The notes: generated by a model not told the origin, from the letters alone. Numbered from the stretch's first letter, positions 15,922 through 18,598 are shown. The stretch is DNA of 64,000 bases from Chlamydiia bacterium (GCA_030427725.1 JAUICV010000002.1:545226-609225), one strand, 5' to 3'. Translations and numbers: made by a program.

Positions 15922-16995
15922 ATGGTATACATAACTCCTGAAATTCAAAATCAGTCCTCTCAGCAGCTAGGGGCTGCTTCAAAACAACAAAAAGCTTCAA
16001 AAGGATCATCGGACAATCCGCGTAATGAAAATTATGTTCTGATTGTCATGGAAGTCATGCAAAAATTTGGACTTGGGCCTTTAGAGAAACTGATGGAAGA
16101 CATGGCTAAAATCGAGCAGTTATTGGCTAAATTTCAAGGCGACTTAACTCAGATTCAACAATTTCTATCAGAAATTGAAAATGCAGCTCACAGTGATGGT
16201 AGTGATCCAAGTAATTTCAACGGATTGCCTAAAAACTTCTGGAAAGAGCATGGAAGTGATCTTAAACAGTTTATGAATGAGATCAAAAGTATTTTCTTTG
16301 CAGGTGGTGATAAATCCAATCCAACTCTTGGTGATTTGATGAAAGAATTCGGTGGGTCTAGTAGTGACCTTATGAATTACTTTAAGAAAATAGCCGGAGA
16401 ATTTAATAACCCAAAAGATCCGTCTCAAAATATCATTACAACGAACCCCAATCAGCATGTTTCTATGATCCAGCTACTCGTCTTTTTAAAACTTCAGCTA
16501 GCTGTTGATCAAAAACAAATGACAGGCGCCAAAATGCCATCAGATTTAACCAAGCTTTATGACCCAAATGGATCTGGTAGTGGAGATGGAATGATTAAGA
16601 GCTTGATGACATTTTTCAATCAGCTAGGAACTGATGTTACAGCGAAAAACAGTAAAAATTCACTCGATGATGGGAATATTTTACAGGCCTTGAAATCTGG
16701 GGATATGGACCATCTAAGGGGGCTTTTCAATTGTATGGCCTACAATTATTACTGGTCTCAAAATCCTAATGGCAGTGGAGATTACCCAGGAGAAGGTGGT
16801 CACGATGTATTGTCACTCTTTTATAGTGATTCCCAAAGTTCAGCCTCTCTTATTTCATCAAATACCAGTGAAAATTCCACTTCTATGCAGGAATATACAT
16901 CTGAAGTGTCTCAGTATCAAAACATTGGGCAAAATATGATCAAAGCCAATTCAGAAAGTGCTATGGCCGTTGTGAATAACTATAAAACAGGCTAA
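15922..16995 (+). CDS. Candidate T3SS filament/tip-like secreted protein, paralog 1 (needle-like C-terminal helix)
   Basis: 357 aa. N-proximal block YVLIVMEVMQKFGLGPLEKLMEDMAKIEQLLAKFQGDLTQIQQFLSEIENAAHS and C-terminal block YSDSQSSASLISSNTSENSTSMQEYTSEVSQYQNIGQNMIKANSESAMAVVNNYKTG are shared with 17225..18598. The centre has diverged. Confidence 0.55.
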   Translation: MVYITPEIQNQSSQQLGAASKQQKASKGSSDNPRNENYVLIVMEVMQKFGLGPLEKLMEDMAKIEQLLAKFQGDLTQIQQFLSEIENAAHSDGSDPSNFNGLPKNFWKEHGSDLKQFMNEIKSIFFAGGDKSNPTLGDLMKEFGGSSSDLMNYFKKIAGEFNNPKDPSQNIITTNPNQHVSMIQLLVFLKLQLAVDQKQMTGAKMPSDLTKLYDPNGSGSGDGMIKSLMTFFNQLGTDVTAKNSKNSLDDGNILQALKSGDMDHLRGLFNCMAYNYYWSQNPNGSGDYPGEGGHDVLSLFYSDSQSSASLISSNTSENSTSMQEYTSEVSQYQNIGQNMIKANSESAMAVVNNYKTG

Positions 16996-17016
16996 TTCAA
17001 AAAAGTTCTCCCTCTC

Positions 17017-17059
17017 GGGGCTCTAAGGTCTTTTTTAAGGCCTGAAAAGCCCCTTTTTT
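17017..17059 (+). terminator. Probable terminator after paralog 1
   Basis: GGGGCT ... AGCCCC stem followed by TTTTTT. The large loop makes it weaker than the others. Confidence 0.4.
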
Positions 17060-17224
17060 AACTCCTTGATAATTAATGGGATATGCGCATTTCTTTTAAT
17101 AAATCTTAATAATACTTTAAAAAAAACTTTATATATACTACAATTAACTTAAGGAATAATGGGCTTTACCTTTGTTTACTAACAAATATGAGGTAGGCCC
17201 GATATATAGGGAAAAGAGGTAAAT

Positions 17225-18598
17225 ATGACAACACCAATATATAACCAGACAGAAAATGATCGAGGCGTCACAAAGATGCTAGATAATAGTATAAGCTCTG
17301 AGAGCTTGTCCAAGACTTCTGTTAAAAGTACTAGTTATGTTTTGATTGTTTTAGAGATGATGCAAACTATAGGTCTAGGTCCTATTGAAAGTCTTATGCA
17401 AACTGAGGCTCAGATGATGGACGTTACGGCAAAAATTCAGTCTGACTTAACGACAATTCAGAGTTTCTTATCTAAGATTGAGAACTTAGCGCACAGTGGT
17501 GCAGCGTGGAAAGTTAATCCAAAAATTCAGAACATGGCCCATAGTGGTATGTATGATCCAAACGCCTATAACGCGTTGTATAAAGAATTTAAAGAAAATC
17601 CAAATGCTATGGATATCCCTAACTCAGATAATGATACTGTCGCTCCAGACTTTAAGACGTCTGTACAGAACTTTTTAAGTGCGTTTAAAGATCTATTTAC
17701 AGGGCAAAGTTGTGACCCTGGTGATGCTTCGGCACAGTCGAACTTTACGACATTTACTGTTAACAAAATGGCTGAGGGTCAAAATCTTCAGGAGTCGTTT
17801 AGTTTAAAAGATCTTTTTGGTCCAGCGAGTAATCCTCATAGTTTAAACAGTAATCCTCAGGGTTGGGGAATGGTCAGTAAATTAGGTTCAAATGAAGCGA
17901 CATTTGGTACCTCTTCAACTACGAAGGCTTCTTTGATTCAGCAGTATACTTATTATCAATACCAGATGGCAGCTGAGAAGAGTAAAGCTTATGTTCCAGG
18001 AGCTGATATCTCGAAACTCCCATTTAGTATGGATCCAAATAGTGGTAATTTCGACGGGGTTGGTCGGTCACTTTTAGGGCTTTTAAACTCTTTTAACACA
18101 ACTATTACTGTGAATAGAGAAAATGACACAAACAATCCAAATGCAGGTAGATTATCTAATAAGTCTACAAATTTCCTGATGTATCTTTTAGAAAAAGACC
18201 CGACCAAATATAGAGATGCTTCAGACAAGTTCGATGGTGGTTATGCAGTAAACATCTATGGAGCTCTATCATTTGCGGCATTTAATTATTTTTGGACTCA
18301 AAACCCGAATGCTTCTGTTGATAAAGGATCTAGTCCAGAACTTAGTCCAGGTTCGATTAATGGCCAATCATATTCAGCAGCAGATGATAAAGGGGTTGCT
18401 GCCGGAGATAAGCTATCTATTTGGTACTCAGACTCTCAGAGTTCATCGTCATTAGTATCATCTGGAAGTAGTGAATCTTCAACAACGATGCAGGAATACA
18501 CCTCTGAAGTGTCTCAGTATCAAAATATTGGTCAGAATATCGTAAAAACAAACAGTGATAGTAACCTAGCGATCGTAAATAACTTCAAGACAGGTTAA
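17225..18598 (+). CDS. Candidate T3SS filament/tip-like secreted protein, paralog 2
   Basis: 457 aa. Shares YVLIVLEMMQTIGLGPIESLMQ...IQSFLSKIENLAHS and the C-terminal WYSDSQSSSSLVSSGSSESSTTMQEYTSEVSQYQNIGQNIVKTNSDSNLAIVNNFKTG with paralog 1. RBS aaaagaggtaaatATG. Confidence 0.55.
   Translation: MTTPIYNQTENDRGVTKMLDNSISSESLSKTSVKSTSYVLIVLEMMQTIGLGPIESLMQTEAQMMDVTAKIQSDLTTIQSFLSKIENLAHSGAAWKVNPKIQNMAHSGMYDPNAYNALYKEFKENPNAMDIPNSDNDTVAPDFKTSVQNFLSAFKDLFTGQSCDPGDASAQSNFTTFTVNKMAEGQNLQESFSLKDLFGPASNPHSLNSNPQGWGMVSKLGSNEATFGTSSTTKASLIQQYTYYQYQMAAEKSKAYVPGADISKLPFSMDPNSGNFDGVGRSLLGLLNSFNTTITVNRENDTNNPNAGRLSNKSTNFLMYLLEKDPTKYRDASDKFDGGYAVNIYGALSFAAFNYFWTQNPNASVDKGSSPELSPGSINGQSYSAADDKGVAAGDKLSIWYSDSQSSSSLVSSGSSESSTTMQEYTSEVSQYQNIGQNIVKTNSDSNLAIVNNFKTG

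Follow-up and report, generated by a model that had tools for sequence, protein, structure and literature searches.

The gene orders espA-espD-espB and sseB-sseC-sseD are established for type III secretion systems (T3SS) of the Esc and Ssa types, in which the SctA proteins EspA and SseB form a filament or sheath. In one published account, the cluster pcrGVH-popBD is described as having a tip gene that adjoins the translocator genes (PMC3066235). For the chlamydial injectisome, CT584/Cpn0803 has been proposed as the tip, but the tip coiled coil is missing from its structure, which "does not support" such a role (PMC3260263). Here we describe two tandem paralogs, paralog A (pA) and paralog B (pB), encoded in a stretch of 64,000 nucleotides from a Chlamydiia bacterium (GCA_030427725.1, JAUICV010000002.1:545226-609225; the whole stretch is called the window below). 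The paralogs end in a tail that resembles the C-terminal helix of T3SS needle subunits, and their genes lie between a needle operon and genes for translocator-like proteins. In all likelihood they are T3SS-associated secreted proteins that contact the needle. We favor, with moderate confidence, the narrower reading that they are T3SS-exported axial components of the SctA class, placed at the far end of the CdsF needle as a tip complex or as subunits of a filament or sheath. Among the candidates to date for the tip or filament still missing in this group of bacteria, they are the strongest.

A first-pass annotation of the window had described two independently terminated genes encoding proteins of 357 and 457 amino acids (aa). 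Both open reading frames (ORFs) were exact, and each is followed by its own terminator-like hairpin and U-run. Neighboring genes in this region are separated by gaps of 200-250 bp, which together with the separate hairpins is consistent with independent termination. BLASTP alignment of pA with pB spanned almost the entire length of the proteins (E 5e-43, 33% identity, 25% gaps), with the identity concentrated at the two ends. The N-proximal block (pB residues 34-93) is 55% identical and the C-terminus (pB 395-457, 63 residues) 73% identical, with every residue aligned in both, while identity in the center (pB 94-394) is 23% and only 197 of its 301 residues can be aligned. The motifs that had been quoted for the shared ends, YVLIV[ML]E[VM]MQ..GLGP[LI]E.. 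and MQEYTSEVSQYQNIGQN, are present in both ORFs, and the proteins terminate in AVVNNYKTG and AIVNNFKTG, so that the claims of a shared N-proximal block and a near-identical C-terminus hold. The accompanying description of conserved ends around a variable center agrees with these identities but needs one correction: the centers are not unrelated sequence but homologous versions of a common fold from which ~100 residues were deleted in the shorter copy.

The evidence linking the paralogs to the needle lies in their last 35 residues. The tail of the needle subunit PrgI, as given in the first-pass annotation, proved to be exact (100% identity to PDB 2lpz), and the 10 identities counted there over 25 ungapped positions were confirmed and extend, still without gaps, to 13 identities over 33. 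The ungapped BLOSUM62 score against the PrgI tail is 60 for the pB tail (shuffles 20.8 +/- 3.9) and 48 for the pA tail (shuffles 22.2 +/- 4.2), and in neither case did any of 300 shuffles reach the observed score. Using the last 49 residues of pB as a phmmer query against 177,635 PDB sequences, we obtained 15 rows; PrgI and MxiH chains account for ten of them (ranks 3-11 and 15; E values of 0.05-1.4). In the first of these, a PrgI-SipD fusion chain at rank 3, the match falls in the PrgI part, and the other nine place query residues 14-47 on the last 34 residues of the needle subunit. The remaining rows were a designed eight-fold repeat protein at ranks 1-2, an artefact of summed weak repeats, and HIV gp41 transmembrane glycoprotein chains at ranks 12-14 (E 0.76-1.0). 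The natural T3SS proteins among these matches were exclusively PrgI or MxiH.

The same register was recovered with the tails of the wider family to which the paralogs belong. A position-specific scoring matrix (PSSM) made from 31 members scored 25.5 on PrgI, compared to 10.0 +/- 1.7 for shuffles (0 of 1000 reached the score), and a PSSM from the 23 most distant members alone scored 19.5, compared to 10.2 +/- 1.9 (3 of 1000 shuffles). At other offsets, including those that preserve the heptad, scores were ~10. The family-tail PSSM was also run on 249 ORFs taken as controls from the window and three other loci, where one spurious ORF of 79 aa scored above PrgI; the next ten were five SctE-like proteins, three CdsF needle subunits matched at their exact C-termini, one antisense ORF of 108 aa and one homolog of the 248-aa protein encoded farther downstream. 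Profile-profile comparison with hhalign, which had been proposed as a check in the first-pass annotation, matched the family tail (profile A3) to a combined alignment of SPI-1-type and chlamydial needles with P 5.2e-5 and a probability of 67% across 35 columns extending to the last residue. The match was weaker to 25 SPI-1-type needles (P 1.2e-3, 19%) and to five chlamydial CdsF sequences (P 9e-3) taken separately, and the whole-protein profile found the combined needle alignment in the same register (P 6.3e-4, 28%). Unrelated families of the locus, used as negative controls, gave P 0.013-0.057, and a calibration in which CdsF was compared with PrgI-type needles gave only P 0.018, in the wrong register. 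With needle chains retrieved from the PDB and a profile match that the controls (P of 0.013 or more) do not approach, the needle-like C-terminal helix noticed at first pass is upheld.

Individual positions of the tail agree with this alignment. When CdsF and PrgI-type needles were aligned end to end with MAFFT, the invariant residues were G7, P41, Q48, S52, S62, N63 and N78. In the register selected by score, Q423 and N453, the only two near-invariant residues of the family tail, fall on needle Q48 and N78, while S427 corresponds to S52 and N438 to N63. The tail pattern can be written as Q..(3)..S..(9)..[SQ]N..(14)..N-[FQ]-[KR], which ends no more than two residues from the C-terminus; some members end in ..NFK, like PrgI with ..QNFR, and others in ..NQK or ..NQL, like CdsF with ..RNQKS. 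These sequence comparisons make it very probable that the tail represents a needle-type helix 2, through descent or a shared assembly constraint. If the likeness were instead due to chance and the linkage to the T3SS merely positional, the paralogs would have nothing to do with secretion, as proteins of the cell surface or of another kind. The marginal database significance (PDB E 0.05-1.4, no PDB match by the family profile, 67% in hhalign) is what such a reading would lead one to expect, but the targeted tests of the tail are significant and consistent in register where the controls are not, and hydropathy analysis revealed no Sec signal peptide or membrane anchor in the paralogs and no hydrophobic segment in the N-terminus of pB. 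We regard this explanation as very improbable, and the gene order described below argues further against it.

The paralogs belong to a family that standard searches barely touch. A word-indexed protein search returned seven proteins, while HMMER, run exhaustively with a profile over 1.84 billion representatives, recovered 40 clusters (50% identity), 25 of them at E <= 1e-30, and a second word-indexed search with a 31-sequence profile added at least one protein, P0041. All 24 of the clusters that were looked up are unnamed or called "hypothetical protein", and they are singletons or tiny clusters from metagenomes or metagenome-assembled genomes (MAGs); the few with an organism label are assigned to a Chlamydiae, Chlamydiia or Chlamydiota bacterium. 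The paralogs are members of an uncharacterised, small family restricted to environmental Chlamydiae, which are represented by metagenomes and MAGs only. No Pfam family was matched by any of the 31 aligned members (alignment A2), including the flagellin families PF00669 and PF00700. Conserved positions occur along the entire length of pB (Q72, G117, F150, L237, Q239, Y241, D277, L318, N354, W357, D395, L397, Q423 and N453). Length variants range from about 270 to 520 aa, and in the short members (268-326 aa) the center is reduced but both terminal helices are retained. The shorter of our two paralogs, pA, matches the family hidden Markov model (HMM) with E 1e-92 and is 53-54% identical to its ortholog in locus L002. 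The tails had a weak match to DUF5460 (E 0.007-0.017), which was taken as chance because the sole DUF5460 paper found was a Rickettsia effector-proteomics study. A role as inner rod (SctI) or ruler was ruled out by size and by the presence of a gene in the ruler position of the core cluster.

One claim of the first-pass annotation, an EspA/SseB-like motif near the N-terminus, had to be abandoned. BLASTP of pB against unverified SseB and EspA sequences gave E > 6 and left the motif unaligned, the EspA/SseB filament family PF03433 was unmatched among the 31 members, and the N-terminal block found only generic coiled coils in the PDB. Membership in the LcrV, IpaD or EspA families was not supported, as neither profile nor fold similarity was found.

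AlphaFold2 modeling of pB reached a mean predicted local distance difference test score (pLDDT) of 57 with seven sequences and of 79.7, with a predicted template modeling score (pTM) of 0.78, when the 31-sequence alignment was supplied. In this model, a central alpha/beta domain is flanked by a long helix on each side and preceded by a disordered N-terminus (Table 1). The N-termini of the family are rich in Ser, Val and Pro and poor in Leu and aromatic residues, and residues 1-35 of pB are a candidate type III secretion signal. The family-averaged hydrophobic period is 3.6 in the helices 38-88 and 396-456, which indicates that both are amphipathic, and the two may pair into a coiled coil. As modeled, the layout of terminal helices with an inserted domain is an axial-protein design.

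The minus strand of the window from 425 to 9765 is a typical chlamydial injectisome block, and the paralogs are part of a co-directional plus-strand set at 15287-22171 that runs from a 144-aa acidic protein to a 185-aa protein. Gene order was compared among the seven loci with adequate flanking DNA (the window, L001, L002, L004, L008/L009, L010 and L011), and all seven have CdsN..CdsF-CdsE-CdsD, CesT, an acidic protein of 143-152 aa, the family array and then hydrophobic SctE-like genes. The array is followed by one to four copies of a hydrophobic protein of the 448-aa type, by smaller proteins and, where the locus extends to it, by ClpX. The sequence of needle operon, family and SctE-like genes fits a tip or filament gene. 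The first-pass annotation had set a homolog distribution uncorrelated with the T3SS as grounds for discarding its reading; the family was linked to the T3SS in 7 of 7 loci. This synteny with the needle operon is also difficult to reconcile with a chance resemblance, even though the ClpX, ClpP and trigger factor genes beyond the far side of the locus, and a DEAD-box helicase gene that interrupts it in three genomes, would suit a merely positional linkage.

The family is tandem in all loci fetched, as determined with the family HMM: two copies are present in the window, L001 and L002, at least two in L004 and seven in a sponge-associated Chlamydiia MAG (L003/L008/L009), and L010 and L011 each have two adjacent genes of family size. 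The second copy of L004 and copy 6 of the sponge MAG have 75% identity, while other copies are recent duplicates at 60-64%, and some paralog lineages are common to several genomes. The L004 contig (NVUU01000012.1) bears the label Candidatus Aerophobetes (MAG NORP81), yet its T3SS block is of the chlamydial type, with two family members and a CdsF 79% identical to that of the window. It is probably a chlamydial contig that was binned or labelled wrongly. The CdsD region of this contig is seemingly split into two ORFs.

The distance of 6 kb from the core cluster, given for the paralogs in the first-pass annotation, is correct as a spacing in the window but proved to be a local feature, because ~5 kb of unrelated genes at 10005-14998 separates the CesT and acidic-protein genes in the window alone. 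These two genes adjoin directly in L001, L004, L008, L010 and L011 and have a single 200-aa gene between them in L002, so that in the six other genomes the array abuts the T3SS genes. The segment looks like an insertion specific to the lineage of the window. It contains a thioredoxin-domain protein, a 322-aa ORF in which a dinucleotide-binding-like GGGPAG motif was noticed by eye near the translation start, and two paralogous proteins outside the family. One of the latter is a 542-aa protein with a signal-peptide-like start (11867-13495, minus strand), which matched no known family. Its residues 47-210 are matched (E 7e-7) by the 168-aa ORF 14492-14998 and its residues 223-444 (E 1e-21) by the 280-aa ORF 13777-14619, which overlap each other on the minus strand. 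Since these are consecutive parts of the 542-aa protein, the two ORFs look like halves of a frameshifted tandem paralog, which would be a pseudogene or a sequencing error.

Directly upstream of the array is the small acidic protein, with orthologs of 50-63% identity in L001, L002 and L004 and a counterpart in the same place in L008, L010 and L011. It is a candidate dedicated chaperone or partner of the paralogs. Pfam and NCBIfam searches assigned no family to any gene of the plus-strand set or to the 331-aa gene that follows it.

The protein encoded directly downstream of the array is 448 aa long and has a hydrophobic hairpin of 37 residues (212-248) as well as a second, weaker hydrophobic stretch. 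Its family (alignment A4) has an N-terminal helical part with the motif NFF[ML]xIF[KE]FLK, the membrane hairpin, an acidic Ala-rich variable stretch and a conserved C-terminus. Four of eight homologues scanned from other loci had sub-threshold hits to PF04888 (SseC, the SctE translocator family), with E values of 8.9e-5, 0.036, 0.039 and 0.67, the best reaching 22.7 bits against a cut-off of 30.2 bits; the copy in the window had no match to PF04888, and the NCBIfam scan of the family found nothing. A PDB profile search gave the pore-forming hemolysin BL L1 as the sole match, a weak one (E 0.035). From these sequence features the assignment of the family as SctE-like is probable. The 201-aa protein encoded next has orthologs in L002 and L006 and no Pfam or NCBIfam match, and its position makes it a candidate minor translocator (SctB-like). 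SctE-like genes are present as four tandem copies in the sponge MAG (L003 11667-17687) and as two in L006 (2465-4072 and 6421-8052). The SctE-like family has multiplied alongside the arrays, which suggests that the candidate tip and the candidate pore former expand together.

Several proteins of the locus have a hydrophobic block soon after a disordered N-terminus (at approximately 17330-17360, 19290-19330, 20930-20975 and 21775-21820). For example, the paralogs have SYVLIVLEMMQ, the 448-aa protein GNFFLILFEYLK, the 248-aa protein YAPALAYAMVAKVM and the 185-aa protein ISVFLAMATAIVAQM. Between the paralog and SctE-like families the N-proximal blocks are weakly similar (hhalign P 0.013), and they could be a common chaperone-binding or sorting element, or could be alike by chance. 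This resemblance, the solubility of the paralogs, which have no membrane segment, and the location of their genes directly upstream of the SctE-like genes would also be expected if the family consisted of hydrophilic components of the translocon, or of its extracellular chaperones or regulators (a cap or plug) that bind the SctE-like and SctB-like proteins. Such a function largely overlaps with that of a tip protein and is hard to tell from it; a needle-type tail argues for direct contact with the needle, and we consider the translocon alternative distinctly unlikely.

Table 1. Location of the paralogs, their predicted segments and neighboring features (positions in the window)
Feature	Position	Strand	Basis or remark
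YscO-like	3871-4410	-	Injectisome block
CdsN ATPase	4429-5748	-	Injectisome block
TPR chaperone	6464-6883	-	Injectisome block
CdsF (SctF) needle subunit, 81 aa	6911..7156	-	ORF; MAFFT end-to-end alignment with PrgI-type needles
DUF5398 (CdsE-like) gene	7250-7489	-	Pfam match
CdsD (SctD), FHA and CdsD-specific domains	7505-9262	-	Pfam matches
CesT-family chaperone	9340-9765	-	Pfam match
Small acidic helical protein, 144 aa	15287..15721	+	Net charge -12, basic tail; directly upstream of array
Terminator of acidic-protein gene	15750-15780	+	Hairpin fold
Paralog A (pA)	15922..16995	+	ORF, 357 aa; short family form, center smaller by ~100 residues
Needle-like C-terminal segment of pA, aa 323-357, QEYTSEVSQYQNIGQNMIKANSESAMAVVNNYKTG	16888..16992	+	Ungapped score; part of profile A3
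Terminator-like hairpin and U-run 3' of pA	17017..17059	+	Fold -21.4 kcal/mol, z -3.5
Paralog B (pB)	17225..18598	+	ORF, 457 aa; full-length family form
Predicted disordered N-terminus of pB, aa 1-35	17225..17329	+	pLDDT < 50
Predicted long N-proximal helix of pB, aa 38-88 (51 residues)	17336..17488	+	Model; contains SYVLIVLEMMQ..GLGP block
Predicted central alpha/beta domain of pB, aa 89-395	17489..18409	+	Model; motifs SLIQQYxYY and FNYYWTKNP
Predicted long C-terminal helix of pB, aa 396-456 (61 residues)	18410..18592	+	Model
Needle-like segment of pB, aa 423-457	18491..18595	+	Ungapped alignment to PrgI 48-80 and CdsF tail
Terminator-like hairpin and U-run 3' of pB	18645..18680	+	Fold -19.1 kcal/mol; 0/200 shuffles fold equally well
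SctE-like (major hydrophobic translocator-like) protein, 448 aa	18846..20192	+	Hydropathy; family alignment A4
201-aa protein, one hydrophobic segment (aa 77-101)	20205..20810	+	Orthologs in L002, L006
Two Ser/Thr/Asn/Gln-rich helical proteins, 248 and 185 aa	20843..22171	+	Conserved; packed tightly behind translocator-like genes
Strong terminator closing plus-strand set	22220-22248	+	Sequence
331-aa gene after terminator	22283-23278	+	ORF

Two further observations concern genes around the translocator-like proteins. The DEAD-box helicase gene (ResIII/DEAD/Helicase_C) lies between the array and the SctE-like gene at L001 13309-14772, L010 11627-13087 and L011 11636-13057, and is absent from the window locus. 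The family of the 248-aa protein (20843-21589, alignment A8) has a strictly conserved ending, ..A..A.RG, which reads ENFAAATAIRG in three genomes, and hhalign found no similarity between this family and needles (P 0.057).

Several results weigh against a tip or filament function for the paralogs. Foldseek comparison of the pLDDT-80 model of pB to the PDB gave 36 matches at E <= 10, none of which was significant (best E 0.23), and LcrV, IpaD, SipD and EspA were all absent among the 36. The weak top matches were almost all flagellar axial proteins (FliD, FliC and FlgL; E 0.23-10, template modeling scores of at most 0.24), and the earlier model of pLDDT 57 also gave no significant neighbor. On this evidence, the head domain has a fold for which no relative is solved. 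Pfam and NCBIfam scans of both paralogs and of fragments found no tip, filament or needle family, a PDB sequence search with the 7-sequence family profile had 0 matches at E <= 10, and the 31-sequence tail profile retrieved no needles from the PDB. The hhalign probability of 67% for the tail lies below 90%, and the match consists of 35 residues of a Q/N/S-rich helix. PF09392 (T3SS_needle_F) was unmatched by the whole proteins, by the tails and by any of the 31 members, a test that is weak here because the CdsF of the window fails it too. This CdsF had no PF09392 match at E <= 10 and no PDB match by phmmer, and its L010 ortholog was the sole ortholog with a PF09392 match, a weak, precomputed one. 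Standard family searches thus miss chlamydial needle-type helices, and an end-anchored profile comparison can recognise such short helices where those searches fail. Finally, known tip proteins are single-copy, while arrays of up to seven paralogs are commoner in effectors or surface antigens.

Arrays of 2-7 diverging paralogs resemble expanded effector families, and the proteins could be translocated effectors or late T3SS substrates that act in or on the host cell, with a tail that reflects convergent composition or serves as an export or chaperone signal. The new fold of the central domain, without a tip-like neighbor, and the lack of profile matches to tip families would fit such proteins, as would the moderate scores of SctE-like C-terminal regions against the family tail profile, which suggest a Q/S/T-rich character shared among substrates. 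Nonetheless, we judge an effector function unlikely. The tail match occurs in one register, is anchored at the C-terminus and survives both composition-preserving shuffles and negative-control profiles, and the near-invariant residues of the family coincide with those invariant in needles. A fixed place between the needle operon and the translocator-like genes, found in all seven loci, is unusual for effectors, and conserved termini around a center that varies down to 268 aa are the pattern of an assembling axial protein. The proposal of a T3SS tip or filament protein made in the first-pass annotation is therefore retained in part: the needle-like tail and the gene order fit it, no known tip or filament family could be assigned, and the function itself is one that we infer.

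If the paralogs are SctA-class components of the distal needle, as we favor, the parts described above could work together as follows. The disordered first ~35 residues would serve as the secretion signal, and the upstream acidic protein would stop the subunits from assembling in the cytoplasm. After export, the amphipathic N-proximal helix of 51 residues and the C-terminal helix of 61 residues would pair into a long coiled coil, and the last 35 residues, by mimicking the C-terminal helix of the needle subunit, might dock so as to continue or cap the helical lattice of the needle. The alpha/beta domain of ~300 residues between the helices would face outward and vary among the 2-7 tandem paralogs, and these varied heads, alternative or mixed, may meet the host membrane and offer a platform for the downstream SctE-like and SctB-like proteins. 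It is tempting to speculate further that the family is derived from the needle itself, a SctF-type hairpin with a new head domain of ~300 residues inserted at its turn, and that the paralogs, by co-assembling or alternating, build a heteromeric tip, or else a filament or sheath of the EspA kind; this more specific scenario is tentative and, as a whole, rather doubtful.

What is new here is an unannotated family with a head fold that has no solved relative and with as many as seven tandem copies in one array, next to SctE-like genes that are multiplied too. It gives a concrete candidate for a tip or filament, at least in an environmental chlamydial lineage. Were the needle-derived scenario true, a chlamydial injectisome would for the first time have a credible tip or filament component, and SctA would gain a previously unseen class whose host-facing heads can be exchanged. 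That up to seven diverged copies stand in tandem next to multiplied SctE-like genes suggests that the host-contact parts are modular and exchangeable, which would bear on host range among chlamydiae of protists, sponges and arthropods.

Compared to the known systems, the family is closest to the SctF needles (PrgI/MxiH and CdsF) in its tail, where an ungapped alignment of the last 35 residues with needle helix 2 runs to the C-terminus, with 13 of 33 identities to PrgI and with Q, S, N and N-[FQ]-[KR] at needle-invariant positions. Unlike these helix-turn-helix needle subunits of about 70-90 aa, the paralogs are 4 to 6 times larger, have an alpha/beta domain of ~300 residues in place of the short P-x-x-P turn, and have an N-terminal helix without detectable similarity to needles. 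With EspA and SseB, the family shares a gene position just upstream of an SctE-like translocator gene and a putative coiled-coil design with both termini conserved, and a needle-extending role is plausible; its proteins differ in being much larger, in having a globular insert and several tandem copies, and in showing no sequence or profile similarity to EspA or SseB. The tips LcrV/PcrV and IpaD/SipD/BipD resemble the family in having long N-proximal and C-terminal helices that flank further domains, in proteins of 300-480 aa, and the adjacent translocator-like genes and the small helical protein encoded upstream recall the arrangement of LcrV/PcrV with LcrG/PcrG, whereas the different central fold, the multiple copies and the lack of a Pfam or PDB sequence match set the family apart from tips of the LcrV/IpaD type. 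In flagellin, FlgL and FliD, too, a variable domain is inserted between terminal helices that are conserved, and there are length variants and tandem paralog arrays, although the fold matches to flagellar axial proteins are not significant and the apparatus encoded beside the family is the non-flagellar chlamydial injectisome. CT584/Cpn0803, the proposed tip of the Chlamydiaceae, is likewise a candidate for the chlamydial needle tip, from which the family differs, in a comparison by description only, in its long terminal helices and needle-type tail. The family would work like an SctA and, by the available tests, lies outside every described SctA family, while its size and architecture separate it from SctF.

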